The notes beneath the pieces are model-generated. The model worked only from the letters and a program-made list of their open reading frames with translations. It was not told where the DNA came from and searched no databases. From contig JBDRNO010000171.1 in NCBI GenBank assembly GCA_043811005.1, forward strand, positions 227 to 64,226: DNA of 64,000 bases, given 5' to 3'. Of the stretch, positions 5,954 through 64,000 are shown piece by piece. Numbering within the stretch: the stretch's first letter is position 1; each line of letters opens with the position of its first letter. Both the position numbers and the translations under genes were made by a program. This stretch comes from Bacteroidota bacterium (GTDB lineage Bacteria > Bacteroidota > Bacteroidia > NORP154).

Positions 5954-8900
5954 ATGAAAAAAAAACTACTCCAACTCGCATTAATCTTAACAGGCATCTC
6001 AGGCACAGGATTTGCCCAACCGGTTATCTCCTATAACCCGGATTCTTTTAATGTTACACTGCCCGGTTGTAATGATTCTACAACGCTTCCTTTTACGATA
6101 TATAATACTGGCAGTGTCGATCTGTATTCCGATGTTTTTAACGGAACAGTTGCTTCAGGCGGCACATTTGATTATGCCTATCTTGCCAATTCTAATGATG
6201 GTAATGTTTCTGTTATTGATCTTAGCAATAATTCGATAATCGGAAGCCCTATACCTGTTGGTATGTGGCCAATGAGGTTGTCTATTAGCCCTGATAGAAA
6301 ATATGTGTACGTTTCTAATAGAGGAAGCAATGATATTGATGTGATCCAAACATCTGACAATACTGTTATTGCAAATATTCCTGTTGGTTTTGCTCCAACC
6401 GGGATTGCTTTTACTCCTGACGGAAATTTTGCTTACTCATGCAACAGGGATGATAACAATGTCATTATGATAGATTGCAGTACTTATGCAATTGTAGATA
6501 CTATTACTCAGGACATGAATTGGCCCCAGGATATTGCAATCACCCCCAACGGGAAATATGCTTATGTTGTAAACAGGAATAGCGGTGTAACAGTCTTCGA
6601 AACAAGTACAAATAATGTGATTGCCAATTTGCCAAGTGTTAGCATGGGTCATTCTGTAGTTATTACTCCAGATGGTCAATTTGTTTACGTCTCTGAATCA
6701 GTAAACCCGGGATTTATTATGGTCATTGACGTCAATACAAACACCATCATTGACAGCATAGGAATATTCCAGCAGGCTGTTGGATTGGATATTACTCAGG
6801 ATGGTAATTATATTTATGCAGGGAACAAATGGAATTCGAGTGTTGAGGTTATTGATGTCAGCACCAATGCCATCATCACTACTATTATGGACCCAAGATT
6901 AAATAATTGTTGGGGTGTTGCGATATCTCCTGATGGTAATTATGTATATGTTACAGTTTCCTGGAATTCACCGAGCATAGTAATTATTGATGTCAATACA
7001 AATACAGTCATTGGTGATTTAACTGCAAGTTTTAATGGTTCCTGGGATATAACTACAATAAAGGGAGCCACATGGCTTTCTGAAGATCCTGTATCAGACA
7101 CTATTGTACCTGGTGACTCTTCAATAATATATGTAAAATTCAAAGCTTCCGGTTTAAATTCAGGTACATATACATCACAAATACTTATCAGCTCTAATGA
7201 CGTTGTTCCACCTATTGATACTATTCCTTGTACATTAACAGTAATTGGTGTCCCTGTATTGGAATTGTCCGATAGTTGTTTGGACCTTGATACGGCAATG
7301 GTAGGAGGAACCAATTTGGATACAGTGCTTTTTATCAACACAGGGTGCGATACGTTGTTCATCACCAGTATAACAAACTCTTTAAGTGAATTTAACGTAG
7401 ATACTTTTACTTCAGTAGTGTTACCTTATGAATACGGAGGGGCTATCATTTCGTTCACGCCAACATCTGTCACTAGTTACTTTGATACGCTTAATATTTT
7501 CACCAATGATGTGGATACTACTGTATGCTTGTCTGGTGTTGGTATACCTCCGGCTATTATTTCCGTTGTTCCTGATTCATTTGACGTTACTATATTAAGC
7601 TGTAGCGATTCGGTTACAATACCTCTGACGATATACAATACAGGTGCAGCAAACCTGACTTATGATTTCAACGCACCGTGCTTGTATATGGTGGTGACCA
7701 TTAATACGCAAAACTGGGGAGGTGAAGTTTCGTGGGAGATAGAAAATGAATTTAGTGTAGTTGTTATGTCCGGCTCGGGTTATGCGGATTTTTCAACTTA
7801 CGTTGATTCGTTATGCGTTCCTCCCGGCAACTACTCATTTTATGCCTATGACGCTTTTGGCGATGGTTGGAATGGCGGAACTTATGATGTTTCCGTAGGA
7901 GGAGTAACAATAGCAAATAATGGCGGTGCTTCACCTGATAATTTTTTCTGCTGCGGTTTTGACCTGGAGTCAACAGAACCATTTACCATCATTGGCGGAG
8001 TTTTTCTTCCTTCGTGGCTTTCTTTAAATCCCGGCACACCTGATACCTTGGCGCCCGGTGATTCAGCCATCGTTGATGTACAATTTAATTCAACAGGTTT
8101 GGGTAGCGGACAACATACTTACGACCTGAACATCAATTCAAACGATCCGGTAAATAACCCGCTTATTGTTCCATGCACATTAACTGTAAATGGTGTTCCG
8201 CAATTGGTTTTATCCGACACATGTCTTGACCTTGATACGGCAATGATAGGGGCAACCAATTACGATACAGTGATCTTTATGAACACCGGGTGCGATACAT
8301 TGTTCATCACCAGTATTACCAATACATTAAGTGAATTTAATATTGATACTTTTACTTCAGTGATTTTACCTTATAACTGGGGTGGAGCTATCATTTCATT
8401 CTCTCCAACATCTGTAGGCAGTTTCCTAGATACACTGAACATATTCAGCAATGATGTAGATACTGCCGTATGCTTATCAGGTGAGGGAATTCCCGCACCA
8501 ACAATTTCTTTTGTCCCTGATTCATTTAATGTTACATTATCAGGATGTGATGATTCAATCACACTTCCGGTTACCATCTATAATGCCGGTGGTGGTGATT
8601 TGGATTTTGATGTATTAGACGGGATTTATTCTCCTGTTGCGGAATTTGGGTTTGCCTATATTGCCAATTCAAATGACAATACTGTCTCAGTTCTGGATTT
8701 GGCAACAAATACTATTGTAGGAGTTCCGATACCGGTTGGTATGTATCCATGGCGGATAACCGTTAAACCGGATGGTAATTATGTTTATGTTTCAAATAGA
8801 GATGGTAATAGTATTTCAGTTATCCGGACTTCAGATAATACAGTAACTGCTACTATTCCTGTCGGACAAAGACCGACAGGACTGGCATTCACACCTGATG

Positions 8901-14900: not shown

Positions 14901-17900
14901 TGGCTATCCCCCTTGGCGATTCGGCTCAGGTGACGGTTTCGTTTTCGCCTGTAACTGCCGGTAATTTTTATGATACTCTTATCATTTATAATAATGATGT
15001 GGATACAAGTATATGCCTGTCGGGTTATGCATATCTGGCGCCTGATATTGCTACTGACCCTGACTCGTTTGATGTTACAATTCCCGCATGTTGTGACTCT
15101 ACTACCCAGTCATTGACCATTTATAATAATGGAGGAACAGATCTAACATTTACCATTACTATCTGTAGTTCTGCCAGTCTGACACTTGATACAATTCTTA
15201 ATAATCTAAACCAAAATTACCTCAATGTTACCAGTGTTATTCCGAGCCGGTATGATTTCACTGACGGAGTTGCAGGCACAAATATAGGTGATGGGGGCGG
15301 AGATATGTATGATAACGGAAACTACCTCTGGACCAATCTTGGAGGCACCTTCAATTATTCAGATAATACAGTTATTCCTGATGCCTGGTTAGGCGCTACA
15401 GGAAAATATTTTACCAGGAAGCATCCAGGATTGTTCGTATTTGCTGCCGACCTGGATGGAATTGATTGGTTCGAGATCACAGGAAATTTAGGCGCTGATG
15501 GTGGTGGCAATGCCGATACTGCTACCCTGACAGCAACAAATTGCGGTATTACATATAAAGGATTTGTGAAAAGAGTTTATAATGCAGGAGACCCTTCCGT
15601 AAACCATCTGATCATCGTGGAAAATGATCCTGCAATTGATTATACATGGACAGCAAATACAGATGATGACCAGCACAGGATTTACAATTTGAGCTCTGCT
15701 CCGACTACACGGTTATACTACTTATTGTATGCTTCAACCGGTGGTGGTTATATCAATAATGCCCAGACATTAAATATTATGACAGAATTTATTAAGGCAA
15801 TACTTCCGCCTGCCGGGTGGTTATCATTTTCACTAAATACAGATACAATAACACCTGGTGATTCAACAATAATTGACGCACAATTCAATACTTGTGGGAT
15901 GAATGCAGGAACACATACATCCGACATAATTATCACTTCCAATGATCCTTTAAATTCACAAACTGCGATACCGGCTACATTTACAGTTATTGGCGTTGCC
16001 GAGATAGAATTATCGGATACCTGCCTTGATCTGGATACTGTCATGCAATGGTCTACCGGAAATAATTCTTTTTGGATCTACAACACCGGCTGTGATACAT
16101 TGTTCGTTACCAATATGACAACATCATTAAGTGAATTCAGTACAGATACAACTGCACTTACGATCTTACTGGGTGACTCGGCACAGGTAACTGTTTCATT
16201 CTCACCGACAACTGCCGGGAATTTTTATGATACTCTTATCATTTACAATAATGATGTAGATACAAGTATCTGCCTGTCAGCGTATGCTTACCTTGCACCG
16301 GCTATTTCATTCGACCCTGACACATTTGATGTTTCTATAACTGCATGCTGCGATTCTTTAATATATCCTGTAACAATTTATAATACAGGTGGTTCAGATT
16401 TAATTTACAATAGTTCAACAATATCCGGTTCCGTGATGACCTACTCTGAAAATTTCACAAACGGTAATACCTATTGTCCCGGAACCCCACAATTCGATAA
16501 TTGGGTCTCTTTCAGAAGCCAGTTGGACACTAACCTATATATGTTTACAAGAGTAACAATAAAGGGAAGTAATGATATGACAGGACGATCATGTACCGAT
16601 CCGGTTATGGTGAAGCAGATGGCAGGATCCCTCTGGCATAGTGTTGCAAGCACCTGGACAGGTTGTGATGGTAATACATGGATGGTTGGTATGGGTTGTG
16701 GTGGCGGATGCGGTGCTCCTGCCTCTCAAATTGTTGAATTTACTGCAGACGGAACAACTTGTAATTGTACCAGCCCGGGCTACATTTTAAGACCTGCGAT
16801 TGGCAATAACAACTGGGGAGGCATCAACGGAGTAACATGTGGGGCGCCAACTCAAACCATGACCGTAGAATTTGAATTCATCAGTTGGTTGAAATTGTCC
16901 CAGACTTTAGCAGATACGATAGCGCCAGGAGATTCAGCCATAGTTAATGCAACGTTCAATAGCTGCGGAATAAATGCCGGTACATATATAAATACCATTG
17001 TAATTACCTCCAATGATCCGATAAATAGTCCCGATACGATCCCAGTAACATTTACAATTAATGGCGCTCCTGAGATAGCGTTGTCTGACTCTTGTCTGTA
17101 CCTGGATTCAATAATACAATACTCATCTAATACCGAGACCTTCTATATTAGAAATATCGGATGTGATACGTTGTTTGTTTCGGATATAAATAATTCACTT
17201 ACAGAATTCAGCGTTAGCGATACTGCAGGTTATATCATGCCGGGAGATTCGGCAGAGATCATTGTTACATTTGCCCCTCTGACTGACGGTTTTTTTCAGG
17301 ATACATTAACGATTTTTAATAATGATGCAGATACTACAGTATGCCTGTCAGCTTATGCATATCTTGCACCTGTTATTTCATACGTCCCTGACTCATTTGA
17401 TGTTACCTTAGCCGCTTGTTGTGATTCGGTGACCTATCCTTTAACGATTTACAATACAGGCGGAAGTGATTTAGCTGTTGAGCTAGCAGGAACAGGGACT
17501 ATGGGAACGCCCGATGTTGCTTTGGTCACTGCTGAAGAAGCTGCTTATAATACCGATGTCCGGAATAAACTGATAGCAACAGGAGCATTTAATTCGGTTA
17601 CATTGGTAGATGCGCGATTTACGACACCTACATTAGCCGATCTTCAGAATTATGATGCTGTGCTGGTTTGGCGTAATTATGGATTTAATAATGCAGCACT
17701 TCTTGGTGATAATCTTGCCGATTATGTTGATGGAGGTGGTGGTGTTGTCACTGCGGTTTTTGCTAATTCATCAAGCACAATAACCGGACGATTCAATTCT
17801 GATGACTATTGGGTTATCCCTCCTGTAGGAGATGTAACAGGAGCTCAAAGTATGGGAACTGTATTTTTCCCCGCACACCCTATAATGCAAGGGGTAACAA

Positions 17901-20900
17901 GTTTTAATGGCGGTACTACAGCCTGGAGGGTATCAAATTTCAACGTTCATGCCAGCGCTACCAGAATAGCTGATTGGGTGGATGGAAGGCCGTTGGTAGC
18001 TACCCGGCTTATTAATGATGCATATAGAGTGGATTTAGGTATGTTTCCTCCTTCCAGTGATATCATTGGAGGGGGATGGGTTTCCTCTACTGACGGAGCG
18101 TTGTTAATGGCTAATTCTTTGTTATGGTCTATTGACGGAGGTGCTGCTTCCTGGCTATCAGTTAATCCTGAAACAGATACGATTGCTCCCGGTGATTCTT
18201 CCTTGTTTAATGTAGAATTCAATAGTTGCGGTCAGAATACAGGAACATACTTCTCTGATATTATTATTATGTCAAATGATCCACTGACACCACAGGATAC
18301 AATACTTGCAGTGTTCACGGTACAGGGCGCTCCGGAAATAGTCCTGTCAGATTCTTGTCTGTATCTGGATTCAATAATGGAATATACATTTAGCGTTAAC
18401 TCATTCTGGATTTTCAACACAGGTTGCGATACTTTATTCGTTACTGATATTAATAATTCAACACCTGAATATGGCGTTACTGATACCGCATTTACCATAC
18501 CGCTTGGCGATTCTGCGTTGGTAATGGTATGGTTTGCCCCGGCTTCTGTAGGATTTTTCCAGGATACTTTAACGATATTGAACAATGATACGGATATCAC
18601 CGTTTGTTTATCAGGTTATGGTTATGGCAGACCTATCATCTCTACTGATCCGGATTCATTTGATGTTGCATTGAACGGCTGCTGCGATTCAATAATAGTT
18701 CCTATGACAATATATAACAGCGGCTTGTCAGATCTTACCTGGAATAGCTGTTCCAATACAGGTATTTACGATGATTTTGATCCTATAGATGGATCGGCAT
18801 GGTCATCCTATTCAGGAATTGCAAGTGCAAACTGCGGTTCAGTAAGCGGTAATGCTATGTATTTTAACGCTGCTGGCATAAGGGAGGCAACCACAATTGA
18901 TATGGATGTTCAATGTATTAATGCAATTTCGTTTTATCTTAAGGTTGCAAATGGTACAGCTTTCCCGTGTGAATCTGCTGATGCAGGCGAGGATGTGGTA
19001 TTGGAATACTCAACTGATGGCGGAGCATTTTGGAATAATATATTTACTTATGACCAGGATAATTATGCTAATTTCACATATATTAATGAACCCATACCGC
19101 CTCCTGCTCAAACCTCCTCTACAAGGTTCAGATGGAGGCAACTTTCACATTCCGGATCAGTCAATGATCATTGGGCAATAGAGGATGTTTTTATTGGGGA
19201 CACGGTTAGTATTGCAAGTATGTCGCCTGATACAGGGACTATTGTGTCCGGTGATTCTGCAATTGTAAATGTCATATTCGATGGCTGTGGACTGGCTCCG
19301 GGATCATATTCGGATTCAGTCATCATTAATTCCAATGACCCATTGAACCCGCAGATAGTATTAGATGCCACAATAACCAAAGACACGATGCCGGGAGCGC
19401 CTGTTGCTTCGGATACTACAATTTGCTTTGGCGATCCCACACCTGACCTGACAGCAACCGGCACCAATATCCAATGGTATGATGATCCGTTATTAGACTC
19501 CGTGATATTCAGCGGTAATCCGTTTGCTTCAGGAGATACAGTAGCGGGTATTTATACCTATTATGTAACCCAAACAGTAAATGGTTGCGAAAGCCCTGAA
19601 GACACATCCGTCCTTACAATTAATGCCGGTCCGCCAGCTCCGGTAGCCACTGATACCACAATATGTTTTGGCAACCCGACACCTGATCTGATCGCTGCCG
19701 GAACAAATATAAAATGGTATAGTGATCCACTTCTTGACACGCTGGTGTTTACCGGAAGTCCGTTTGCTTCGGGGGACACAGCAATAGGAATATACAACTA
19801 TTATGTTACAGATAGTATAACCGGCTGTATCCCCAGCACAGCCGATACTGCTTCATTAACCATTAATTTTGTACCAACAGCGCCTGGCTCTTCAGACACA
19901 ACAATCTGTTTCGGTGACCCAACACCTGACCTTATCGCAACCGGATCTAATATCAAATGGTATAGCGATTCATCATTAACCACTCTGGAATTTGTTGGAG
20001 ATTCATTCGCATCAGGTGATACAGCCGTGGGCATATATATATATTACGCCATGGATAGCATTAATGGATGTGCCGGTCCTTATACTGTGGTAACTTTATC
20101 TATCAATGGAGCGCCAACAGCGCCACCTGATTCTGACACTACGATATGTTATGGTGATCCGATACCAGACCTGGTCGCAACAGGCACATATATTCAGTGG
20201 TACAGTGATACGGGACTTACAACATTGGTATTTAGCGGAGATACTTTTGCAACGGGAGATTCGACTGTTGGAGCTCATATATATTATGTTACAGATAGTG
20301 TAAGCGGATGTGCCGCAAGCCCTGCCGATACCGCCATATTGTTCATTAATGCAATTCCACCGGCGCCCATAGCTTCTGATTCGGCAATATGTTTTGGCGA
20401 TCCTCCTGGTGAACTAACAGCAACAGGAACCAACCTCCAATGGTATAGCGATTCATTGTTAGACACATTGGTTTGGATTGGCGATCCTTTCACAACAGGT
20501 GAAACCGGGGCAGGAACATACACATATTTTGTTACTCAAACAGTAAGCGGATGTGAAAGTCCGGCTGATACCGTTACCCTGACAATATATGCAACCCCGG
20601 CGCCGGACTCTTCCGATACAACGATATGTTCCGGAGACCCGACACCCGACCTGACAGCCACAGGAACCAACATCAAATGGTACAGTGATTCATTGCTTGA
20701 TACATTATTGTTTAGCGGCAATCCTTTTGCAACAGGCGAAACAGCAGTGGGGATATATATATATTATGTTACCGATAGCTTAAATGGCTGTGAAAGCCCT
20801 GGAACCATGGTTACATTAACCATAAATGCAGGACCCGGAGTACCGGTTGCATCCGACACTGCAATATGCTTTGGTGATCCCACACCTGACCTCACGGCAA

Positions 20901-33478: not shown

Positions 33479-33489
33479 AAGTAGAAAAT

Positions 33490-33522
33490 AGACCTCACAG
33501 GTTTCCAAAACCTGTGAGGTCT
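33490..33522 (+). terminator. Perfect 15-bp-stem hairpin 12 nt after the gene 1 stop (likely intrinsic terminator, no clear U-tract)
   Basis: agacctcacaggttt-cca-aaacctgtgaggtct. Confidence 0.6.
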
Positions 33523-33891: not shown

Positions 33892-33899
33892 TATATTTG
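33892..33899 (+). promoter_or_regulatory. Candidate Bacteroidota -7 promoter box (TAnnTTTG) for gene 2
   Basis: TATATTTG, 77 nt upstream of the ATG at 33976, in very AT-rich sequence. Confidence 0.3.
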
Positions 33900-48900: not shown

Positions 48901-51900
48901 CAGTGGTATGACGATCCGGGGCTCGGCTCCATGGTCTTCAGCGGTAATCCATTCTCATCAGGAGATGTAGCAGTTGGTATCCATACTTATTATGCTACCC
49001 AGACCGTAAGCGGCTGTGAAAGTCCGGGAACTGCCGTAACTTTAACTATCAATGCGCCACCGGCTGTACTTGTAGCGTCAGATACTGCAATATGTTTCGG
49101 TGACCCGACACCTGACCTGACAGCAAGCGGTTTATATATCCAGTGGTATAGCGATACGGGTCTGACAACATTAGAATTTGCCGGAGACACTTTTGCCACA
49201 GGAGAAACTGCAACCGGAACATACACCTATTATGTCACGGATAGTGTTTCAGGATGTCCGCAAAGTCCTGCTGACACAGTTATCTTAACCATAAATGCCT
49301 TTCCATCAGCCCCAGTTGCCTCTGACATTGCTATTTGCATAGGTGATACCGTACCTGACCTGGTTGCTGTAGGAGATAGTGTCCGTTGGTACAGTGATCC
49401 ACTATTAGACACAATGGTATATTCAGGCGGCTCATTTGCCACAGGCCATACTGCTTCGGGAGTTTATATCTATTATGTAACTCAAACGGATACAATTACT
49501 CTTTGTGAGAGCCCTGCTGATACAGTCACATTAGCAATTTATTCAACACCTGCACCATCATCGTCTGATTTGATCGTGTGCTTTGGTGATTCTGTTCCTG
49601 ACCTGGTAGCAACCGGAGTTGGTATTCGCTGGTATAGTGATTCGTTTTTAGACTCACTGATATTTATTGGGGATACTCTTACACTTAGTGATTCCACTGT
49701 AGGTTCGCATACATATTTTACCACCCAAACGGATACTGTAACCGGTTGTGAAAGTCCGGCAACAACCGTTACATTGACCATTAATGCAATACCTGCTGTG
49801 CCGGCAACTACCGATGAGACAGTATGTGAAGGAGGATCCATACCGGACCTTATCGCTACCGGAACCAATAACACCTGGTACAGCGATACAAGTCTGAGCA
49901 TAATAGAATTCAGCGGTGATACCTTTGCAACAGGACAAACAATAGTAGGTACATATACATATTATATAACCCAAACAGTGCTTAGTTGTGAAAGCCCTGC
50001 TGATACATCTGTCCTTACTATTAGCCCAACCCCATCAGCACCGACTGCTTCAGACGAATCCGCATGTGAAGGCAGTACAATCCCTGACCTGATTGCAACG
50101 GGAACCGATGTAAAATGGTATAGTGATTCATCATTGACAGTGTTAGCAGACACCGGTAATACGTATGCCACCGGTCAGACAGTTCCTGGTACATATACAT
50201 ATTATGTAACAGACAGTCTACCTGGATGCCCCGGACTTTCAGCATCAGTTAGATTAACTATAATCCCTATGCCGGTAGCGCCAACAGCTACCGATACCAC
50301 GATTTGCTATGGTGAGCCGACACCTGACCTGGTAGCAACGGGATCGCTTATCAGATGGTATGATGATCCACTGCTCCAGAATTTAATATATAGCGGGGAT
50401 ACCCTTGCACCGGTTGATACTGCTGCCGGTATATACATGTATTATGCTACACAAACCGATGCATTAACACTTTGCGAAGGTCCTGCAATTACGGTATCCT
50501 TGACCATTAATGCCATTCCGTCAATACCAACAGCTTCGGATGAGGTAGCTTGTGAAGGCTCTGCTGTTCCCGACCTGGTAGCGACAGGGATTAATATCAC
50601 CTGGTATAGTGATTCAGTCTTGAGCATTGTAGAATTCAACGGTGATACATTTACAACCGAAGATTCCGTTGCAGGTATATATACATATTATGTAACTCAG
50701 ACAATACTTGGTTGTGAGAGCCCAGCAGATACCGTTTTATTATCCATATTGTCAACAGTACCGGCACCAACTGCATCTGATGAAACAGCTTGCGTGGGTG
50801 GTACTATCCCTGATCTTTCAGCGTCAGGTTCTAACATTCAATGGTATAATAGTCCACTGTTAGACACGGTAATATTTACCGGCAGTTCTTTTGCAACAGG
50901 AGAAACAGCCGTGGGAACATATACATGGTATGTTACGGATAGTGTGCCAGGATGTGGCGAAAGCGGAGCCGATACGGTTACACTGACCATAAATTCAATA
51001 CCATCAGCACCTTTATCTTCCGATAAAACGGTCTGTTTCGGTGAACCAACACCTGACCTGGTTACTGCAGGAACCAATATACAGTGGTATAGTGACTCAT
51101 TATTGACTGTTTTAGCATTCAGCGGAGACATTTATGCAACCGGAAATACCGTAGATAGTGTTTATACATATTACGCTACTCAAATCATAAACAGCTGTGA
51201 GAGCCAGGCAACTACGGTTATATTAACCATTAAGCCGGCTCCACCTATGCCGGCAGCAACTGACGTTATTGTTTGTTGGGGTGATCCCGTTCCTGATCTG
51301 ACAGCTACAGGTACCAACATCCAGTGGTACAGCGACCCATTGCTTGATACCCTGGTATTTAGCGGCAGTCCTTTCGCAACAGGAGACACCGTAATTGGTA
51401 CATATACTTATTATGTCGTTGATAGTTCAGGTAGCTGCTTTAGCCCGGTAAATCCTGTAACATTGACAATAACCAGTTACCCGATCCTGACCTTGTCAGA
51501 CACATGCCTGGACCTGGGAGCAATAATTGAATTAACATCCAGCACTGATACATTGTTCTTCTTCAACCCGGGTTGTGATACTTTACAGGTAACAAATATT
51601 ACTAACTCAACACCCGAATACAGTGTTGATACTACCAGCTTAACCGTATTGCCCGGAGACACAGGGCAGGTTATTGTTTCTTTCTCTCCGGCTGCTTCCG
51701 GCATTTACCTGGATACACTAAATATAACCAGCAATGACGTTGACGCTACTGTATGCCTGGGTGGTTCTGCCCTGGGCGTTCCTGTCATCGCTGCTTTACC
51801 CGATTCCTTTAACGTATCTTTTAATGGTTGTTGTGATTCCTCTATTTCAACATTGGCCATTTACAACACCGGAGTAACCGACCTGATCTGTAATATAAGT

Positions 51901-54795: not shown

Positions 54796-54799
54796 AAAT

Positions 54800-54832
54800 A
54801 GACCCCACAGGTTTCCAAAACCTGTGAGGTCT
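54800..54832 (+). terminator. Hairpin 5 nt after the gene 2 stop; same sequence as 33490-33522 with one stem mismatch
   Basis: agaccccacaggttt-cca-aaacctgtgaggtct. Confidence 0.55.
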
Positions 54833-55281
54833 GATCTGTTCATTCTGAGCCCCGCCATTCGCTAGCCAGTATGTAAGCCTTGGTGGAGCGAAAAATCTTC
54901 AGGATATCAGTACCTAATCTTCAAAGAAGTATTTTATAGCGGATGCCTTCAGATGATGTGTTGCGCGATGGCTCTCCCCCTGTTTTTAGGGGGAGATACA
55001 GAGGGAGTAAAAATCTTATCAATACTTTATTTCTTAATCATTTCATAAACTTTAAAATACCCAAGTTTACTTGCTTAACTACAATCCAGTCATCCAGAAT
55101 TCTTGACTACCGGTTTTTTTTGCCAGACTATTTAATAATATAAATAAATAAAATTTATTATCATTTCATTGATAATTTATATTTTTACCAGTTTTCTATC
55201 CAAATAATTTGAATAAAAAGTTTTAACATAATACAAAAAATTCCCGAATTGTTGTATTTAAAAAACTAATATTTAAAACCC

Positions 55282-58200
55282 ATGAAAAGAAAACTTATCC
55301 AACTCGCTTTTATCCTTACAGGAATACCTGCCATAGGATTTGCCCAACCGGTAATTTCGGTTGACCCTGGTTCCTTTAATGTTAATTTAAACTGCGGGGA
55401 TACAACTACCCAGGGTTTAACCATTTATAATACAGGTACAGATACTTTGTTTTTCGTATCTTTCTATCCTTATTGTTATATCGGTAACTCAAATGGTAGC
55501 GATGTTACTGTTCTTGATATGACCAGCAATGCAATGACTGGAAGTTCTATAAATGTAAGTGGCTGGCCTTATTTGCTTGCCATGACTCCTGACAATCAGT
55601 ATGTTTATGTTGCAGATTATGATAATATTGTTAGTGTAATCCGAACTTTGGATAATACATTGGTAAGTTCTATCCCTGTTGGTAACTATCCTTATGGTAT
55701 AGACATCACTCCTGATGGAAGCCATGCTTATGTAACTTGTAAAGATGATAACAGTGTAATGGTTATTGATTGTGGCACAAATACTGTTGTTGATACAATC
55801 TCACAAAATTTATCTGCTCCGAGAGGTATTAAGATTACTCCTGATGGAAAATATGCTTACGTGGCTAATGAAGGAGGAGGAGTAACTGTTATCGAAATTA
55901 GCACAAATACTTCTATAGCTTTTATTGGTGGCATCACATTTGGACATCAGATAGCCATTACTCCTGATGGCAAATATGTTTATGTTTCTGATGCTGATAA
56001 CAACTGGAATTGGGGATTTATACATGTAATATCAACTAAAACTAATACAATAATTAACACTATCCCTGGAAATGGAGGTTCGCCACATCCCAAAGGTTTA
56101 GATGTTACTCCTGATGGTAAATATGTATATGTAGCTGATTCGGATGGCAGGATTTATGTTATTGAAGTAAGCACACAAACAATAATAAACACAATTACAG
56201 ATCCGGGATTAAACGGACCCTGGGCATTAAGGATATCCCCTGATGGAAGATATGCTTTTGTTACTGACCGATGGGATGCAACATCTCTGGCAGTTATTGA
56301 CATTAGTACAAACACAGTTATTGATAATTTTTATTCAGGCGATGGCTCACGTGGCATAACTACTCCAAAAAAATATCCCTCCTGGCTTTCTCTTAATCCT
56401 TCATTAGATTATGTTTTAGCTGGTGATTCCTTAAAAATAGATGTATTTTTTGATGCTTCAGGTGTTCCTGCCGGCACCTATACTTATGACTTGACTATCT
56501 ATTCTAATGATACAACAAATTCTCTTATTTTAGTTCCTTGCTCATTAACAGTATCTGGAAATCCTGTATTAGTTTTATCAGATACCTGTCTGGATTATGA
56601 TACGGTGATGGAAGGAGGGATCTATCCCTTATCCTTGTGGATTATTAATACAGGATGTGACACTTTGTTTGTCACAAGTATGACAACATCAACAAGTGAT
56701 TTCAGCCCTGATACAAACGCTTTGGCGGTTTTACCTTATAGTTCTGAAGAAGTAATTGTTTATTTCACACCATCTACAACAGGTACATTAACGGATACGC
56801 TTGAAATATTCAGCAATGGAGGGGATACAACTATTTGTTTATCAGGTTTTGGAATTGATGCACCTCATATCTCCCTCAACCCCGAATCCTTTAATGTAGT
56901 ATTTAATAATTGTGATGATACTGCATCTTTTCCCTTAACTATTTATAATACAGGTGCGATCAATTTAGATTTCGATATTACAACTATGACATATTCCCCA
57001 CCCTTTAATTTTGCTTATATTGCCAATAGGAGTGATAACACTGTTACCGTTCTTGATGTAACTACCAATACTTTAGTAGGAGCACCCATTTCGGTTGGTG
57101 CCTTACCCTGGAGGGTGACCATAAAGCCCGATGCCAGGTATGTATATGTTTCTAACAGGGACGGGAACAGTATTTCGGTTATCAGGACTTCAGATAACAC
57201 AGTGACCACCACTATTCCCGTAGGGAACAGACCAACCGGTCTGGCATTCACACCTGATGGAAACTATGCCTATGTAGGTAACAGAAATAGCGATAATGTA
57301 ATGAAAATTGATTGCGGAACAAATACTGTTGTAAATACGATCACTACAAGCATTAGTGAACCGCAAGATATTGCTATTACCCCGGACGGAAAATATGCTT
57401 ATGTTGCAAATGCAGGCAGTGGCATAATAGTTATCGAAGTAGGTCCTGATACTGTTGTTGCTACTATCGGAGGAACATGGCTTGGTGACCATTTTATTGA
57501 TATTACCCCTGACGGGCAATATGTTTATGTTTCCCGGTCATGGAATGATGATGTGATTGTGATCAGCACAGCAACCAATTCCATTGTTGCAACTATCGGT
57601 GGCTTTGATGAACCACATGGTTTGGATATAACCCCTGATGGTAATTTTGTTTATGTACTAGATAAATGGAACGAACAGGTTGACATTATTGATGTCAACA
57701 CGAATTCTATAGTTTATTCAATTAACGATAGCAGGTTCGATAACGGCTGGGGACTGGCGATATCACCGTATGGAGATTATGCTTATGTTACAAATGCGTG
57801 GAATACACCATCTCTGATAATTATTGATATAAGCACAAATACGATTGTTGATGCTTTTTCACCTGGCAACGACCCGCGCGGAATAGCTACTTTATTCGGG
57901 GGTTTGCCATGGCTTGATGCAAGTATAACTTCCGGCAGCATTACCCCCGGAGATAGTACTACATTAAATATTTTGTTCGATGGCATAGATTTGAATGCCG
58001 GAACATATACCGGAGATATAATCATCAATTCCAACGACCCTTTATCACCTGCTGCCATCCCGTGCACTTTAACTGTTATCGGTACACCTGAAATTGTACT
58101 GTCTGACACCTGTCTTAACTTTGATACAACCTTTCAGTTCGGAACCAGCACAGAGACCTTGCGTATTTATAACACTGATTGTGGTAACCTAAGCGTCACA

Positions 58201-61200
58201 GACATTATCAGCATGGTAGGTGAGTTTAGTGTGGATACAACAACTTTTATTGTTTTACCAGATGACTCAGTTGATGTTATTATCTCATTTTCTCCATTAT
58301 CCACAGGCAGCTTTTCAGGAACCCTTAATATATTTAATAATGATATGGACACAACAGTTTGCCTGTCCGGTGAAGCAATTTTTCCCCCTATCATCTCTTT
58401 TATTCCTGATTCATATAATATTACAACTCCATGTAATACCTTAGTTACCGACACACTGGTTATATATAATACTGGGGCTGATAATCTTTTATTTGATCTG
58501 ATCCCGTGCAATCTCAATGGATCTCTTGATAATATTCTCGTTGCTTTAAATCAAAATTTCACTCCTGTAATAAATGCTATTCCCAGTAGGTATAATTTCT
58601 CAGATGGAGTAACCGGCACCTACATTAACGATGGAGGCGGTGATATGTATGATGGCGGAAATTACCTCAGGACCAACATTGGCGGTTCTTTTAATTATTC
58701 AGATAATTTAGTTGTCAGTAATACATGGCTTGGCTCGACCGGGAAATATTTTACCAGGAAATATACAGGTTTGTTTGTATTTGGCGCTGACATTAACGGG
58801 GTTGACTGGTTCGAGATATCCGGTAATTTAGGTGCAGATGGAAGTGGCAGTTCCGATGCATCAATCCTGACCGTGGATATGTGCGGAACCACCTACAAGG
58901 GTTTTGTAAAAAGAGTTTATAACGCTGGTGACCCGTCAGTGAATCACCTGATCATTGTTGAAGATAAACCGGGTATTGATCATAACTGGTCGTCCAATAC
59001 GGATGATGATCAGCACATGGTATTTAATCTAGCCACGACAACCCGGCTCTATCATTTATTATATGCTTCAAGCGGTGGGGGTTATATTGATGATAATGCC
59101 ACGTTGAATATTATGTCAGAATTCCTTAATGCAATAAATATTTTTCCCGATTGGTTATCATTATCACCTGAATCAGATACGATCATACCCGGGGATTCAA
59201 CAGTAGTTGATGTTCAATTTAACACAACTGGCTATACCGTAGGTCAGTATTCAACAAATATTTTCGTCAGTTCAAATGACCCGGTAAACCCGCTGGATAC
59301 AATACCTGTTGTATTAACTGTCACAGGTGCCTCTGAAATTACAATATCTGATACCTGCCTGTATTTGGATTCAATTATGGAATTCACCACTAATTCCGAA
59401 TCATTTTGGATCTTAAATACAGGCTGTGATACCTTGTTCATTACCGATGCCAATAATTCATTACCTGAATTTAGTTTAAGTGATACTGCTGGGTATATCA
59501 TGCCAGGTGATTCGACAGAAATTATTGTTACGTTTGCTCCTGTATCCGCAGGTTTTTTCATGGATAACATCAATATTTTCAGCAATGATGTGGATACATC
59601 TTTATGCCTATACGGCTATGCTTATTTATCTCCTTCAATATCTTTTAATCCAGATTCATTTGATGTTTTCGTTGCATGTGGGGATTCACTCATAGATTCA
59701 TTAACTATTTATAATACCGGCTTAAATGAACTGAATTGGAATATTGGATTTTCTGTTATAATTGGCGGTATTAGCGTGGATTCGTTATCAGGTGTTATTG
59801 CTGCTGGTGATTCAACAACTGTATATGTGGATTTTAACGCTTCAGGAATGAATGTAGGGACTTATGCAACTGATATCATTATCAATTCCAATGACCCTTT
59901 AAACCCGCTGGTTACAGTACCAATCCTTATGAATGTGACTGGCACCCCGGAAATTACGGTTTCTGATTCATGCTTATATTTGGATTCAATAATGCAATAT
60001 ACAATCAATACCAATTCATTCTGGATCTTAAACACCGGCTGTGATACCTTGTTCTTTACCGATGCCAATAATTCAATACCTGAATTTAGTTTAAGTGATA
60101 CAGCAGGATATATCATGCCAGGTGGTTCGACAGAAATTATTGTTACGTTTACTCCTGTATCCGTAGGCTTTTTTCAGGACACCATCAATATTTTCAGCAA
60201 TGATGTGGATACTTCAGTATGTTTGTTTGGTTATGCTTATCCGTCAGCTTCTATTTCATTTAATCCTGACACATTTGATGTTACTATCAATAGTTGTTGT
60301 GATTCTACAATATTACCACTTACAATTTACAATACCGGTGGTTCAGATTTAATTTACACTGCCTCTTCTGGATCCGGATCTGGTGGAGGTTCGTTAATGA
60401 CTTACTCTGAAACTTACACAAACGGTGCTTCCTATTGCCCCGGATCCCCGCAATTCGATAATTGGGTGTCTTTCAGAAGCCAGTTGGACACCAACCTAAA
60501 TAAGTTTACGAGTGTAACAATCAAGGGAAGTAATGATATGACAGGACGAACATGTACCGACCCGGTTAAGGTGATGCAGATGGCAGGATCCCTCAGGAAT
60601 AGTGTTGCAGGCACCTGGGCGGGTTGTGATGGTTATACCTGGATAGTTGCTATGGGTTGTGGTAGCGGATGCGGTGCTCCTGCCTCTCAAATTGTTGAAT
60701 TTAATGCAAACGGAACAACTTGTAACTGTGCCAGCCCTGGCTACGATCTAAGACCTGCGATTGCTAATAACAACTGGGGAGGTATAAACTCAACCTCTTG
60801 CGGTGCGCCAACTCAAACCATGATCGTAGAATTTGAATATATCAGTTGGTTGACTTTATCACAGACCGGGGAAGATACTATAGCGCCGGGAGATTCAGCC
60901 ATAGTTGATGTAACTTTCAAAAGTTGCGATTTAAATGCCGGTACTTATACAAGCACTATTGAAGTTACCTCCAATGATCCGATGAATAGCCCCTATACAA
61001 TCCCGGTAACATTTACAATAGATGCTCCGCCTCAAATTATCCTTTCAGACACATGCCTGTATCTGGATTCAATAATGGAATTTATCACCAATTCTGAATC
61101 ATTTTGGATACTAAACACCGGTTGTGATACCTTGTTCATTACCGATGCCAATAATTCATTACCAGAATTTAGTTTAAGTGATACAGCAGGATATATCATG

Positions 61201-64000
61201 CCCGGTGATTCGGTAGAGATTATTGTAACCTTTGCTCCGACATCTGCCGGTTTCTTCCAGGATACTGTTAATATATTAAGCAATGATGTGGATACTTCGG
61301 TATGTTTGTTTGGTTATGCTTTCCTTTCACCTGCTATTTCCTATGATCCTGACTCATTTGATGTTACAATAGCCGGTTGTTGTGATTCTTCAACCTATCC
61401 GTTAACAATATATAATACGGGCGGGGCAGATCTTGATTGGACTATCAGTATCTCATCCGGAATCGCTGATGATTTTGACCCCGGGATTGATCTTAGCCAG
61501 TGGACGGGCTTAACCGGTTGGGCAAGCGCAAACTGCGGCTCGGTGAGCGGTAATGCATTGTATTTTGATGATAATGGTATAAGACAGGCAGAGACAATTG
61601 ACCTTAATGTGGTAGGTGTCAGTACGGTTGATTTTTATCTTAAAATTGCAACTGGCAGTGCACCTTGTGAAAATGCAGATGCCGGAGAAGACGTTGTGCT
61701 GGAATATTCTACTAATGGCGGAGGAAGCTGGACAATTATAAACACATATCTGGAAAGTGTTTATCCTAACTTCACGTTGATAAATGAACCGATTCCTGCT
61801 CCGGCTAAAACCACTTCAACAAGATTCCGCTGGAGACAACTCTTTCATAGCGGTAATTGTTGTGACCATTGGGCTATTGATAATATCTCTATTGGTTCTA
61901 CGGTAGTATATTTAACTGTTGATCCTGATACAGGGACAATAATACCAGGAGATTCAACAATTATTAATGTACAATTTAACACTTGCGGATTAACAACCGG
62001 CACATATTTCTCTGATATAGTAATCAATTCAAATGATCCCTTGAGCCCCCAGGAAATCATACCCGCGGTATTTACTGTTCAGGGTGTTCCTGAAATAATA
62101 TTATCCGATACATGTTTATACCTGGATTCAATAATGGAGTTTACAACTAATTCCAGCACTCTATTGATCTCTAATAACGGTTGCGATACACTGTTTGTCA
62201 GTAATATAACAAATACACTTCCTGAATACAGCGTTGATATTACTTCCTTCACCCTTTTACCTGGCGGGTCACAACCTGTTGTTGTTACATTTGCTCCCAC
62301 ATCTGTTGGCTTTTTCCAGGATACAATTGTTATTTATAACAATGATGCCGATACTACAGTATGCTTATCCGGTTATGGCTATGTCATGCCTGAAATTTCC
62401 GTTGATCCTGCCTCATTTAGTGATACAATAGCATATTGTGTCGATTCTATCACATTTCCTATGACCATTTACAATACCGGAGGCAGCGACCTGATCTTTG
62501 ATATAGATACCGGGGGATATTATGCAACGTTTGATGGAGTCAATGATTACATTCGTGTTAGTAACAATTACAGCGGATTGAGTGTAGTTACACTGGAGAC
62601 ATGGATATATCCTACCAATACGACAGGCTTGCACTGGATATTAAGTAATGCAAGAGACTGCTGTACACCAACAGGAGGATTTAATTTTTATATGAACGGA
62701 ACAAACCTGCAGGGATCAGTATGGAGAAGTACGAGCAGTACTTTGATCTCTGTTTCTGCTGGCGGGGTGCTTTCTATTAACACCTGGCAGCACGTAGCTT
62801 TGGTGTATGATGGTACCAAAATCGAACTATTTCTCAATGGAAACCTTGTTGCTACATCCGCAATTTCTGGTTTATCTGCAGTTCAGAATGGTTCGCAAAA
62901 TTTACATATGGGTGTTCTGGCATTCAGCGCACCATCTTATTATGATTACCAAGGGTATATGGATAATGTAAGAATTTGGAATATCGTAAGAAACCAATCG
63001 GAGATCAATGCCAACATGAATATTGGGCTAAGTGGAAATGAACCCGGATTAATAAGTTACTGGGATTTTGATGACCAAACTGCAAATGATCAAAGCCCAA
63101 ATGGAAATGACGGTACATTTTTTGGAAATGCCACCACAACCATAGGAGGACCTTTCACAGATTTGTTCACTGGTTCTTTGATTACGAATACAGTACCTGC
63201 CGGAGATTCATCGGTTGTGGATGTATTTATTGACATGTCATCCCTGAATTCGGGATTATATGTTGATACCATTGAGATAAACTCAAATGATCCTCTGAAT
63301 TCCCCGGTCATAGTGCCGATTTTGATTGATTATATTGGCGCTCCGGAGATAGCTTTATCTGATACATGCATAAATTCTGATACGATCTTCCAATGGGCAT
63401 CAACCACGGATAGTCTTTACATAGGGAATACTGGATGCGATACCTTATTCGTTACCGATATCGTTTCTTCTTCAGCAGAATTTACTGTGGATATAACTAC
63501 ACTGCCAATCATGCCCGGAGACTCATCGCTGGTTATAATCACATTTAGCCCGGTTACCCCGGGCAGCTATTCCGAAACACTGACAATATTTAATAATGAT
63601 ATTGATACAACGATTTGCCTGACAGGATTTGCCTTAAGTCCTCCGATAATATCTTATAATCCTGACTCTTTTAATGTATTATTTACAACATGTGCCGATT
63701 CAGTGACACTTCCTCTAACTGTTTATAATAGCGGTACCGAAGATCTGATTTTTGATGTCGGTAATGGATATTCTACATCTTTGGACGGAGTGAATAGTCA
63801 TGTGGATTGCGGGAATAATGCCATTTTCCAGATTCCTCAAGGAACTATTGAAGCATGGTTTAGAACTAATAGTACATCAGTACAGTTTGCTGCAGGCGTT
63901 CCTTATGATGATGGGTCTGCATGGGACAACCCATGGGTTGGCTTTCAGATTGGAACAAGCTCCAATCAAGGACGATTTTGGTTAAATGTCAATGGTAGTG
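55282..64000 (+). CDS. Third giant mosaic surface protein (more than 2,906 aa); 3' end beyond the window
   Basis: Missing from the ORF track because it is open-ended. The ATG at 55282 gives MKRKLIQLAFILTGIPAIGFAQPVISVDPGSFNVNL. I checked the frame (position = 1 mod 3) at 58621, 61468, 62518 and 63961, and found no stop through 64000. Confidence 0.9.
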   Translation, partial: MKRKLIQLAFILTGIPAIGFAQPVISVDPGSFNVNLNCGDTTTQGLTIYNTGTDTLFFVSFYPYCYIGNSNGSDVTVLDMTSNAMTGSSINVSGWPYLLAMTPDNQYVYVADYDNIVSVIRTLDNTLVSSIPVGNYPYGIDITPDGSHAYVTCKDDNSVMVIDCGTNTVVDTISQNLSAPRGIKITPDGKYAYVANEGGGVTVIEISTNTSIAFIGGITFGHQIAITPDGKYVYVSDADNNWNWGFIHVISTKTNTIINTIPGNGGSPHPKGLDVTPDGKYVYVADSDGRIYVIEVSTQTIINTITDPGLNGPWALRISPDGRYAFVTDRWDATSLAVIDISTNTVIDNFYSGDGSRGITTPKKYPSWLSLNPSLDYVLAGDSLKIDVFFDASGVPAGTYTYDLTIYSNDTTNSLILVPCSLTVSGNPVLVLSDTCLDYDTVMEGGIYPLSLWIINTGCDTLFVTSMTTSTSDFSPDTNALAVLPYSSEEVIVYFTPSTTGTLTDTLEIFSNGGDTTICLSGFGIDAPHISLNPESFNVVFNNCDDTASFPLTIYNTGAINLDFDITTMTYSPPFNFAYIANRSDNTVTVLDVTTNTLVGAPISVGALPWRVTIKPDARYVYVSNRDGNSISVIRTSDNTVTTTIPVGNRPTGLAFTPDGNYAYVGNRNSDNVMKIDCGTNTVVNTITTSISEPQDIAITPDGKYAYVANAGSGIIVIEVGPDTVVATIGGTWLGDHFIDITPDGQYVYVSRSWNDDVIVISTATNSIVATIGGFDEPHGLDITPDGNFVYVLDKWNEQVDIIDVNTNSIVYSINDSRFDNGWGLAISPYGDYAYVTNAWNTPSLIIIDISTNTIVDAFSPGNDPRGIATLFGGLPWLDASITSGSITPGDSTTLNILFDGIDLNAGTYTGDIIINSNDPLSPAAIPCTLTVIGTPEIVLSDTCLNFDTTFQFGTSTETLRIYNTDCGNLSVTDIISMVGEFSVDTTTFIVLPDDSVDVIISFSPLSTGSFSGTLNIFNNDMDTTVCLSGEAIFPPIISFIPDSYNITTPCNTLVTDTLVIYNTGADNLLFDLIPCNLNGSLDNILVALNQNFTPVINAIPSRYNFSDGVTGTYINDGGGDMYDGGNYLRTNIGGSFNYSDNLVVSNTWLGSTGKYFTRKYTGLFVFGADINGVDWFEISGNLGADGSGSSDASILTVDMCGTTYKGFVKRVYNAGDPSVNHLIIVEDKPGIDHNWSSNTDDDQHMVFNLATTTRLYHLLYASSGGGYIDDNATLNIMSEFLNAINIFPDWLSLSPESDTIIPGDSTVVDVQFNTTGYTVGQYSTNIFVSSNDPVNPLDTIPVVLTVTGASEITISDTCLYLDSIMEFTTNSESFWILNTGCDTLFITDANNSLPEFSLSDTAGYIMPGDSTEIIVTFAPVSAGFFMDNINIFSNDVDTSLCLYGYAYLSPSISFNPDSFDVFVACGDSLIDSLTIYNTGLNELNWNIGFSVIIGGISVDSLSGVIAAGDSTTVYVDFNASGMNVGTYATDIIINSNDPLNPLVTVPILMNVTGTPEITVSDSCLYLDSIMQYTINTNSFWILNTGCDTLFFTDANNSIPEFSLSDTAGYIMPGGSTEIIVTFTPVSVGFFQDTINIFSNDVDTSVCLFGYAYPSASISFNPDTFDVTINSCCDSTILPLTIYNTGGSDLIYTASSGSGSGGGSLMTYSETYTNGASYCPGSPQFDNWVSFRSQLDTNLNKFTSVTIKGSNDMTGRTCTDPVKVMQMAGSLRNSVAGTWAGCDGYTWIVAMGCGSGCGAPASQIVEFNANGTTCNCASPGYDLRPAIANNNWGGINSTSCGAPTQTMIVEFEYISWLTLSQTGEDTIAPGDSAIVDVTFKSCDLNAGTYTSTIEVTSNDPMNSPYTIPVTFTIDAPPQIILSDTCLYLDSIMEFITNSESFWILNTGCDTLFITDANNSLPEFSLSDTAGYIMPGDSVEIIVTFAPTSAGFFQDTVNILSNDVDTSVCLFGYAFLSPAISYDPDSFDVTIAGCCDSSTYPLTIYNTGGADLDWTISISSGIADDFDPGIDLSQWTGLTGWASANCGSVSGNALYFDDNGIRQAETIDLNVVGVSTVDFYLKIATGSAPCENADAGEDVVLEYSTNGGGSWTIINTYLESVYPNFTLINEPIPAPAKTTSTRFRWRQLFHSGNCCDHWAIDNISIGSTVVYLTVDPDTGTIIPGDSTIINVQFNTCGLTTGTYFSDIVINSNDPLSPQEIIPAVFTVQGVPEIILSDTCLYLDSIMEFTTNSSTLLISNNGCDTLFVSNITNTLPEYSVDITSFTLLPGGSQPVVVTFAPTSVGFFQDTIVIYNNDADTTVCLSGYGYVMPEISVDPASFSDTIAYCVDSITFPMTIYNTGGSDLIFDIDTGGYYATFDGVNDYIRVSNNYSGLSVVTLETWIYPTNTTGLHWILSNARDCCTPTGGFNFYMNGTNLQGSVWRSTSSTLISVSAGGVLSINTWQHVALVYDGTKIELFLNGNLVATSAISGLSAVQNGSQNLHMGVLAFSAPSYYDYQGYMDNVRIWNIVRNQSEINANMNIGLSGNEPGLISYWDFDDQTANDQSPNGNDGTFFGNATTTIGGPFTDLFTGSLITNTVPAGDSSVVDVFIDMSSLNSGLYVDTIEINSNDPLNSPVIVPILIDYIGAPEIALSDTCINSDTIFQWASTTDSLYIGNTGCDTLFVTDIVSSSAEFTVDITTLPIMPGDSSLVIITFSPVTPGSYSETLTIFNNDIDTTICLTGFALSPPIISYNPDSFNVLFTTCADSVTLPLTVYNSGTEDLIFDVGNGYSTSLDGVNSHVDCGNNAIFQIPQGTIEAWFRTNSTSVQFAAGVPYDDGSAWDNPWVGFQIGTSSNQGRFWLNVNGS
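55470..56365 (+). other. YVTN-family beta-propeller 1 (gene 3)
   Basis: YCYIGNSNGSDVTVLDMTSNAMTGSSINVSGWPYLLAMTPDNQYVYVADYDNIVSVI...PYGIDITPDGSHAYVTCKDDNSVMVID... Confidence 0.8.
57010..57900 (+). other. YVTN-family beta-propeller 2 (gene 3)
   Basis: FAYIANRSDNTVTVLDVTTNTLVGAPISVGALPWRVTIKPDARYVYVSNRDGNSISVI...PTGLAFTPDGNYAYVGNRNSDNVMKID... Confidence 0.8.
58521..59140 (+). other. Unassigned DGGGDMYD-GNYL domain, copy in gene 3
   Basis: LDNILVALNQNFTPVINAIPSRYNFSDGVTGTYINDGGGDMYDGGNYLRTNIGGSFNYSDNLVVSNTWLGSTGKYFTRKYTGLFVFGADINGVDWFEISGNLGADGSGSSD...VKRVYNAGDPSVNHLIIVED...DDDQHMVFNL... Confidence 0.6.
60397..60852 (+). other. Unassigned Cys-rich CGSGCGAP domain, copy in gene 3
   Basis: MTYSETYTNGASYCPGSPQFDNWVSFRSQLDTNLNKFTSVTIKGSNDMTGRTCTDPVKVMQMAGSLRNSVAGTWAGCDGYTWIVAMGCGSGCGAPASQIVEFNANGTTCNCASPGYDLRPAIANNNWGGINSTSCGAPTQTMIVEFEY. 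Confidence 0.6.
61463..61897 (+). other. Reelin-subrepeat-like beta-sandwich domain (gene 3, tentative)
   Basis: ADDFDPGIDLSQWTG...CGSVSGNALYFDDNGIRQAETIDL...VDFYLKIATGSAPCENADAGEDVVLEYSTNGGGSWTII...PAKTTSTRFRWRQLFHSGNCCDHWAIDNISIGS. Confidence 0.5.
62518..63150 (+). other. Laminin-G_3 / concanavalin-A-like lectin domain 1
   Basis: YYATFDGVNDYIRVSNNYSGLSVVTLETWIYP...INTWQHVALVYDGTKIELFLNGNLVAT...YQGYMDNVRIWNIVRNQSEINANM...GLISYWDFDD. Confidence 0.8.
63767..64000 (+). other. Laminin-G_3-like domain 2 (truncated by the window end)
   Basis: GYSTSLDGVNSHVDCGNNAIFQIPQGTIEAWFRTNSTS...; same opening pattern as domain 1. Confidence 0.55.

Follow-up and report, generated by a model that had tools for sequence, protein, structure and literature searches.

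Why would a bacterium of the phylum Bacteroidota keep three adjacent genes so large that the first alone stays open for 27.5 kb, and what could their products do? This question is raised by 64,000 nucleotides (nt) of contig JBDRNO010000171.1 (assembly GCA_043811005.1, Bacteroidota bacterium, lineage NORP154), referred to below as the window. Three genes, here termed G1, G2 and G3, lie head-to-tail on its + strand with intact frames and together occupy 57,064 of the 64,000 nt. We propose that they encode giant type IX secretion system (T9SS) cargo, most likely multivalent adhesive surface fibres. The putative binding modules ("heads") appear to be inserted inside immunoglobulin (Ig) domains and not strung between them, a feature that was overlooked in an earlier note on this DNA.

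Three giant tandem genes and their secretion signals

G1 (5954..33478) is a complete gene for a protein of 9,174 amino acids (aa) and about 0.98 MDa. Its reading frame could also begin at an in-frame TTG (5933), which would add seven codons, but we set the start at the ATG at 5954 because the signal peptide then matches those of G2 and G3. G2 (33976..54795) is likewise complete and encodes 6,939 aa. Only the 5' part of G3 (55282..64000) is available; its frame begins with the ATG at 55282, is still open where the window ends and codes for at least 2,906 aa. The exact G2 sequence is also recorded in a collection derived from NCBI, on one contig of 65,959 bp. Since the window is almost the whole of that contig, which is some 2 kb longer, the truncation of G3 is due to the assembly and not to biology. 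The earlier note had described three giant tandem + strand reading frames, and they are exactly where and as large as it said. It had also considered them to be real genes, the first one longer than the gliding adhesin SprB. The frames do remain open over 27.5 kb (G1) and 20.8 kb (G2), the ratio of nonsynonymous to synonymous divergence (dN/dS) in paralogous blocks is 0.14-0.40, and the 9,174 aa of G1 compare with 6,497 aa for SprB (PMC9870892).

All three products begin with a Sec signal peptide (MKKKLLQLALILTGISGTGFAQP, MKKKLIQLALIMAGIPGIGFAQP and MKRKLIQLAFILTGIPAIGFAQP), for which the consensus is MK(K/R)KL(L/I)QLA(L/F)I..GI..(T/I)GFA|QP. The assignment was made by reading MKKKLLQLALILTGISGTGFA|QP together with its two paralogous versions. 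In G1 the signal peptide (5954..6016, + strand, aa 1-21) has a KKK n-region, a hydrophobic core and an A-Q junction, with predicted cleavage at GFA|QP. The three signal peptides are indeed conserved, but to call them near-identical, as had been done, was generous, as the counted identity is 74-78%.

At the other end, both complete proteins carry a T9SS type A sorting domain (G1, 33233..33475; G2, 54550..54792; both + strand). The profile search that the earlier note had proposed places this domain above curated thresholds in G1 and G2, with PF18962 scores of 42.7 and 39.1 bits (cut-off 27) and TIGR04183 scores of 35.5 and 36.7 bits (cut-off 23; 39.7 for the isolated G1 tail). The domain has the YPNP and GxY motifs, the matches stop 3-4 residues short of the stop codon, and the two copies are 89% identical over 80 aa. 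Type A sorting domains use PorV and are cleaved, and T9SS core genes accompany proteins with such sorting domains almost without exception (PMC10202324). The predicted secretion of G1 and G2 through the T9SS is thus well supported.

Other routes and classes left no trace in the same scans, which covered the three translations in segments of about 1,000 aa (20 segments for Pfam, 10 for NCBIfam). Neither the type B sorting domain (PF13585/TIGR04131) nor the SprB repeat (PF13573) was reported in any segment scanned against Pfam or NCBIfam. RTX or haemolysin-type calcium-binding families were found in no Pfam-scanned segment, the C-terminus being a T9SS sorting domain. No sprF/porP-like gene adjoins G1 or G2, whose downstream neighbours are G2 and G3, respectively.

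Domain layout

Domain layouts were derived from the Pfam and NCBIfam scans complemented with custom iterated hidden Markov models (HMMs). The head region of G1 (6020..19393, + strand) contains 11 guests, each within a split choice-of-anchor-D Ig domain that is followed by one complete Ig domain. The heads come in the order propeller, GDGW module (H2), propeller, propeller, ThuA-like, LamG-like, MAM-like, H6, H7, ThuA-like and Reelin-B. The stalk that follows (19391..32968, + strand) consists of 29, 13 and 9 Ig_7 domains; at each of the two breaks (aa 6813-7015 and 8071-8273) stand one complete Ig and one host Ig that has no guest. After the last 9 Ig_7 domains come a domain of approximately 90 aa and the sorting domain. 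In G2 the signal peptide precedes four GEVED heads among Ig domains, 15 Ig_7, an H6 head and a propeller head, then 23 Ig_7, two Ig domains, 9 Ig_7, the approximately 90-aa domain and the sorting domain. G3 as sequenced has seven heads: after the signal peptide come two propellers, H6, a guestless Ig, H7, Reelin-B, LamG_3 and the start of a LamG-like head, and any stalk and sorting domain would lie beyond the end of the window.

Altogether there are 98 Ig_7 domains, 51 in G1 and 47 in G2, and the presence of exactly two cysteines in 97 of them suggests one disulfide per domain. Ig domains of the choice-of-anchor-D/HYDIN type number about 55, a tally from domain listings and not a direct count. 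The corresponding model NF012200 (choice-of-anchor D) exceeds its cut-off of 45 in eight scanned segments from all three genes (47-99 bits). The mix of propellers, lectin-like folds and about 100 Ig domains read earlier from the sequence is therefore borne out, with six propellers, LamG_3, Reelin subrepeat B, an InhA-like MAM module, four GEVED modules and the 98 Ig_7 domains. The three genes are indeed paralogues, with related signal peptides, the same scaffold domains and five common head families whose order is partly conserved (for example, H6, H7 and Reelin-B occur in this order in both G1 and G3). The three paralogues appear to present different head sets on a similar stalk.

Heads nested in a split Ig socket

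All 24 heads interrupt an Ig domain of the choice-of-anchor-D/HYDIN type in one and the same loop, at about position 42-44 of 108. In front of every head stand about 40 residues of the pattern P.IS..PDSF.V....DS.T.P.TIYNTG..DL, and heads are followed by about 60 residues of the pattern WLS..P.SDTI.PGDS..V.V.F...G...G.Y...I.I.SNDP.... In seven places both pieces are contiguous and make up a single 108-aa domain, an "empty socket". An HMM built from these seven intact domains gives two half-matches per interrupted site at the 24 sites, covering HMM positions of about 1-42 before the head and about 44-108 after it; at the last site, in G3, there is the first half only, as the window ends there. 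Database models behave in the same way. PF25248 matches with just its N-terminal half ahead of the first G2 head, and PF22544 and NF041425 give matches behind heads only, with model positions 52-89 and 46-95, respectively.

This arrangement is consistent with an AlphaFold2 model of one unit (G1 aa 3030-3350), computed from a 25-sequence alignment, which has a mean predicted local distance difference test score (pLDDT) of 93.3 and a predicted template modelling score (pTM) of 0.85. The four N-terminal strands of this model have pLDDT values of 88-97, which would be hard to obtain unless they packed with the C-terminal strands. We infer that these four strands form a sandwich with the five strands behind the head. 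The heads thus appear to be side branches of a continuous Ig backbone, in which the host Ig domains alternate with complete choice-of-anchor-D domains.

The socket together with H6 is also present in proteins annotated as Bacteroidota, Verrucomicrobiota, Latescibacteria, Eisenbacteria and Marinimicrobia. Therefore, the nesting is old and widespread and not peculiar to this contig. Literature searches yielded no description of this architecture or of guests in choice-of-anchor-D/DUF1573 Ig domains.

It is tempting to go one step further and view the split Ig as a plug-in scaffold, in which the highly similar halves of the host Ig that flank every head could serve as homology arms, enabling heads to be swapped, duplicated or deleted among the tandem paralogues. 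The locus would then be a combinatorial generator of adhesin specificity, with H6 as a new fold family. The uneven synonymous divergence of individual modules, the seven empty sockets and the finding of H6 in sockets across several phyla are consistent with this idea, which nonetheless remains speculative and, in our opinion, rather doubtful.

Head families

When all 24 heads are compared with one another, they fall into about ten families. The largest is the YVTN/lactonase-type propeller (six copies, 42-90% identical), followed by GEVED (four copies), LamG_3 or LamG-like modules (three), Reelin subrepeat B (two), a weakly ThuA-like module (two) and a single InhA-type MAM module. No catalytic Pfam or NCBIfam family reached its threshold in the scanned segments.

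The guest H6 is found in all three genes on the + strand (G1, 15152..15835, aa 3067-3294; G2, 42949-43617; G3, 58495-59163), the copies being 67-70% identical. It is about 215 aa long and contains the motifs DGGGDMYDGGN, YFTRKYPGLF and DPSVNHLIIVED, along with Asp, His and Lys residues that are invariant or nearly so. H6 has no Pfam match at E<=1, and the H6-containing segment matches Ig-type models only in NCBIfam at E<=0.01. Modelled alone with AlphaFold2, it reaches a pLDDT of 94.0 and a pTM of 0.92. An attempt to derive its function from solved structures was given up: the H6 sequence profile finds nothing below E=0.2 in the PDB, and the best Foldseek matches have query-normalised TM-scores of at most 0.38. 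These weak matches are to the beta-sandwich domains found at the N-termini of GH92, GH65 and GH116 enzymes. The family itself is large. A profile search of 1.84 billion representative proteins returned 1,550 at E<=0.001, and 698 matched at E<=1e-30. Of the 150 best matches listed, most are proteins 1,000-5,800 aa long, some have up to five H6 stretches, and one has nine fragmentary stretches. Where homologues were aligned across the flanks, H6 lies inside the same split Ig domain. Being frequent and confidently modelled while having no annotation or close solved fold, H6 is a candidate for a new domain-family entry.

Two further guests are likewise unannotated. The Cys-rich H7 (G1, 16409..16903, aa 3486-3650; G3, 60358-60870; both + strand) is 165 aa long and 80% identical between the two genes, with motifs such as CGGGCGAP and TCNCTSPGY. 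It has no Pfam match at E<=1 and no homologue among 191 retrieved proteins and may be an orphan domain. H2 (7664-8035, + strand; G1 aa 571-694) is a single-copy module of 124 aa with a GDGWNGG motif, several cysteines and no Pfam match at E<=0.05.

Divergence and selection among the repeats

The earlier note had left open whether the genes are maintained or very recently expanded. To answer this, we rely on Nei-Gojobori estimates for twelve paralogous block pairs, where dN/dS is 0.14-0.40 and the synonymous divergence (dS) 0.20-1.74. For the C-terminal block of G1 and G2 (1,730 codons, 84% protein identity) dS is 0.48 and dN/dS 0.19. Modules common to G1 and G3 differ widely in dS, from 0.34 for H7 to 1.67 for H6 and 1.74 for Reelin-B. 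The copies are thus old and have been under purifying selection since duplication. This decides between the two options in favour of maintenance, and recent expansion is not supported.

DNA self-comparison gives a similar picture. The best long repeat pair (28274-33825 versus 49597-55111, 84% identical) comprises the C-terminal parts of G1 and G2 together with about 350 nt beyond their stop codons. Internal repeats are 62-78% identical, and the Ig_7 arrays have a period of 240 nt and a super-period of 1,203 nt, corresponding to five domains. The longest exact repeats within genes are 116 nt and then 87 nt. With repeats 62-84% identical and exact ones not exceeding 116 nt, collapse or chimaera in the assembly is unlikely, yet the number of super-repeats could still be off. 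The 87-nt and 116-nt exact repeats occur at 22187-22416 and 24593-24822, offset by 2,406 nt, or two Ig_7 super-repeats. These sites are the likeliest spots for a copy-number error in a short-read assembly.

Relatives and known giant surface proteins

The proteins returned by the homologue search reach at most about 1.75 times the length of the query (2,443 aa with a 1,400-aa query and 1,170 aa with a 679-aa one). The nearest are partial entries from marine metagenome-assembled genomes (MAGs) labelled Flavobacteriales, Bacteroidetes or Bacteroidales and are at most 54% identical; the closest one (P0001, 54% identity) belongs to yet another Flavobacteriales MAG. Several weaker homologues are annotated as "gliding motility-associated-like protein". 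Longer relatives are encoded in public MAGs. UWMA-0023 of the Flavobacteriales (DTRK01000169.1, the same sequence as JYMV01012279.1) has a complete 5,498-aa gene whose product combines seven heads with 21 Ig_7 domains and ends in a type A sorting domain, as well as a second paralogue in tandem. There is a related gene of at least 3,966 aa in MAG NORP157, a 4,800-aa gene of like design, again with a type A sorting domain, in the Cryomorphaceae MAG E2-BRE-20, and a 5,234-aa gene with split-Ig heads and Ig_7 domains, in which no sorting domain was detected, in a groundwater Bacteroidia MAG. Like G1 and G2, the uncharacterised relatives from UWMA-0023, NORP157 and E2-BRE-20 combine split-Ig heads, an Ig_7 stalk, the approximately 90-aa domain and a type A sorting domain. 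Their chains are shorter, however, the number of heads being 3-8 and that of Ig_7 domains 21-27, and none has been studied. The mosaic is therefore not unique, as the same design is seen at 4,000-5,500 aa in public Flavobacteriales MAGs.

Very large genes are not unique to this organism either, judging by a Cyclobacteriaceae MAG (JBGALO010000004.1) retrieved via a LamG-type match. Its frame at 2-20668 is open over the whole 20.7 kb, codes for at least 6,889 aa and runs off both ends, so that the gene may exceed G2. In general, surface proteins of giant size have long been familiar: 580 prokaryotic genomes were found in a survey to contain 3,732 genes >5 kb, and UniProtKB has more than 41,000 entries for proteins exceeding 5,000 aa (PMC11573180). 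Their size by itself thus makes G1-G3 no more than moderately remarkable. What is distinctive here is the placement of 24 guests at one Ig loop, the three-gene tandem family with reshuffled heads and the frequent yet unannotated H6.

RemA, a protein of about 1,400 aa, and other type A surface proteins of the PorV/PorU route resemble G1 and G2 in having TIGR04183/PF18962 and in displaying lectin-type modules, but RemA has a single lectin domain in series, whereas G1 and G2 have several heads nested in Ig domains and a stalk of about 50 domains. SprB of Flavobacterium johnsoniae (6,497 aa; PMC9870892) is, like G1 and G2, a giant, repeat-rich, filamentous T9SS cargo exported after Sec, and G1 is 41% longer. 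Yet SprB has a type B sorting domain and needs SprF, the gene of which usually adjoins (PMC10202324), making it a poor comparator; G1 and G2 have type A domains, neither an adjacent sprF/porP-like gene nor SprB repeats, and a different domain repertoire. The CHU_large proteins of Cytophaga hutchinsonii use the same Ig_7 family (PF19081, "CHU_C associated" arrays) but end in CHU_C, a type B sorting domain. The giant RTX adhesins of the type I secretion system (MpIBP of Marinomonas primoryensis, 1.5 MDa; SiiE; LapA) likewise have a long Ig-like extender, by which several ligand-binding modules are kept at a great distance from the cell (PMC5550230, PMC5466336). They differ in the secretion system, in polarity, which is reversed with the binding modules near the C-terminus, and in having their domains in series.

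Non-coding blocks and upstream genes

The repeat that unites the ends of G1 and G2 continues into non-coding DNA. A conserved block after G1 (33479..33825, + strand) aligns with one after G2 (54796..55111, + strand), with fold z-scores of -4.3 and -4.9, respectively. This block of about 350 nt was duplicated together with the gene ends. It contains a hairpin with 15-nt arms (16 bp in the RNA fold), perfect at 33490-33522 and with one mismatch at 54800-54832. The hairpin is followed by a stretch of about 70 nt that is identical in both copies and more conserved than the adjacent coding DNA, and the blocks also hold a second GC-rich stem-loop and a conserved CTGTTTTTAGGGGGAGATACAGAGGG motif. The hairpins had earlier been taken for terminators. 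They do follow both stop codons, but the reading as classical terminators was rejected, since no T-run follows on the + strand. The block could belong to the 3' untranslated region, be a repeat element or serve to regulate the gene that follows. Searches of the window with Rfam at gathering thresholds and for tRNA genes gave no matches. An invertible promoter with phase variation was also considered and dismissed, as there are only intergenic AT-rich low-complexity inverted repeats and the post-stop hairpins, and no recombinase gene in the window. The Bacteroidota -7 box (TAnnTTTG), present upstream of G2 only, is uninformative.

Two further genes lie upstream of G1 on the - strand. The nearer one (2524-5757) is divergent from G1 across a spacer of 196 nt with 14% GC and encodes 1,077 aa from a TTG or, in the form that was scanned, 1,073 aa from the first ATG. 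Its first ~430 aa resemble the TPR and PD40 part of CHU_0125 OmpA-like/PorE proteins, and its C-terminal ~600 aa form an (E/A)KAKA coiled coil where CHU_0125/PorE proteins have the OmpA domain. Owing to the coiled coil, the region has an AT skew of -0.5. The best match of this protein is 53% identical and comes from a MAG labelled Chlorobiota, the others being from Bacteroidota (26-40%), which places the source no more closely than Bacteroidota/FCB, probably Flavobacteriales-like. The second gene (2-2443) runs off the window start and encodes a WD40 beta-propeller with a caspase domain (Peptidase_C14, EACC1-associated type).

Possible function and alternative explanations

Based on these observations, the export and use of the proteins may be pictured as follows, with the pathway steps taken from the established biology of the family. 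The Sec signal peptide would direct the chain to the periplasm, where it would fold with one probable disulfide per Ig_7 domain, and the C-terminal type A sorting domain would take it through the T9SS translocon. The C-terminus would then be anchored at the outer surface, as in model species where the PorV/PorU route leads to anionic lipopolysaccharide, or the protein would be released. Next to the sorting domain lies the stalk of 47-51 Ig_7 domains, and the far N-terminal part is the choice-of-anchor-D Ig backbone, every second backbone domain carrying a different guest in one fixed loop. A fully extended fibre might measure very roughly 0.3 micrometre, an estimate from the domain count that takes each Ig domain to add about 4 nm, with heads projecting sideways. 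Such fibres could act as multivalent, multi-specific adhesins or as capture fibres for particles, polysaccharides or other cells. The adhesive function is suggested by the stalk-plus-heads design, the lectin-like and propeller folds, the lack of recognisable catalytic domains and the analogy to MpIBP and SiiE. The lectin-like folds, propellers and Ig stalks also agree with the earlier proposal of surface fibres or adhesins whose binding heads differ, although it is still an inference.

Several observations weigh against this interpretation. The ThuA-like heads and H6 could be enzymes. There is no T9SS machinery gene within the 64-kb window, and the CHU_0125 and PorE scores of the 2524-5757 product (176 and 154 bits) are far below the cut-offs (620 and 600). 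The data contain no C-terminus for G3, the contig comes from an assembly so that repeat copy number is as assembled, and the evidence that the Ig halves pair consists of half-matches in sequence together with model confidence scores.

Some of these points bear on the possibility that the proteins are released and constitute a matrix outside the cell or a scaffold whose enzymes (H6, ThuA-like modules and propellers), weakly recognisable as such, act on polymers, with adhesion not being the main role. In environmental Bacteroidota, release is the fate of many type A cargo proteins. Enzymatic activity would agree with the invariant or nearly invariant Asp, His and Lys residues of H6, with its weak structural similarity to N-terminal beta-sandwiches of glycoside hydrolases and phosphorylases, and with the weak ThuA matches of two heads. 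However, those structural matches are poor (TM-score <=0.38) and concern non-catalytic domains, no catalytic family reached threshold, and a stalk of ~50 Ig domains by the sorting domain is the classic design for holding something off the surface. We therefore regard this scenario as unlikely. It seems somewhat more improbable that the proteins are mobile adhesins of the SprB/RemA kind, moved by the gliding machinery and not static fibres. Their giant size and filament-like repeats recall SprB, RemA is a precedent for a motility adhesin with a type A sorting domain (PMC10202324), and the annotation of the weaker homologues points the same way. Yet neither a type B sorting domain nor SprB repeats were reported in the scanned segments, no sprF/porP-like gene, which usually adjoins type B cargo genes, follows G1 or G2, and there is no gld or spr gene in the window.

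It might also be argued that the genes are a product of mis-joined repeats in a metagenome assembly, or decaying pseudogenes. After all, the window is almost an entire contig of a public assembly, and with exact repeats of up to 116 nt the Ig_7 count could be off by a super-repeat. This explanation is highly improbable, though, given the frames that are open over tens of kilobases, the repeats >1 kb that are only 62-84% identical, the dN/dS values well below 1 wherever computed, and the genes of the same layout, 4,000-5,500 aa in size, in independent MAGs. Adhesive surface fibres thus remain our preferred reading of G1-G3.

Implications

The frequency of H6, with about 1,550 clusters at 50% identity, reveals a gap in domain databases. 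The nesting of some ten kinds of guests in a fixed loop differs from the serial layout of characterised giant adhesins, and the split-Ig scaffold is a natural template for the display of foreign domains. If secreted as proposed, G1 would be a T9SS substrate of roughly 1 MDa, and it would consequently bear on the size limit for folded cargo of the translocon. Almost no giant surface protein beyond SprB has been studied, although such proteins decide what environmental Bacteroidota adhere to.

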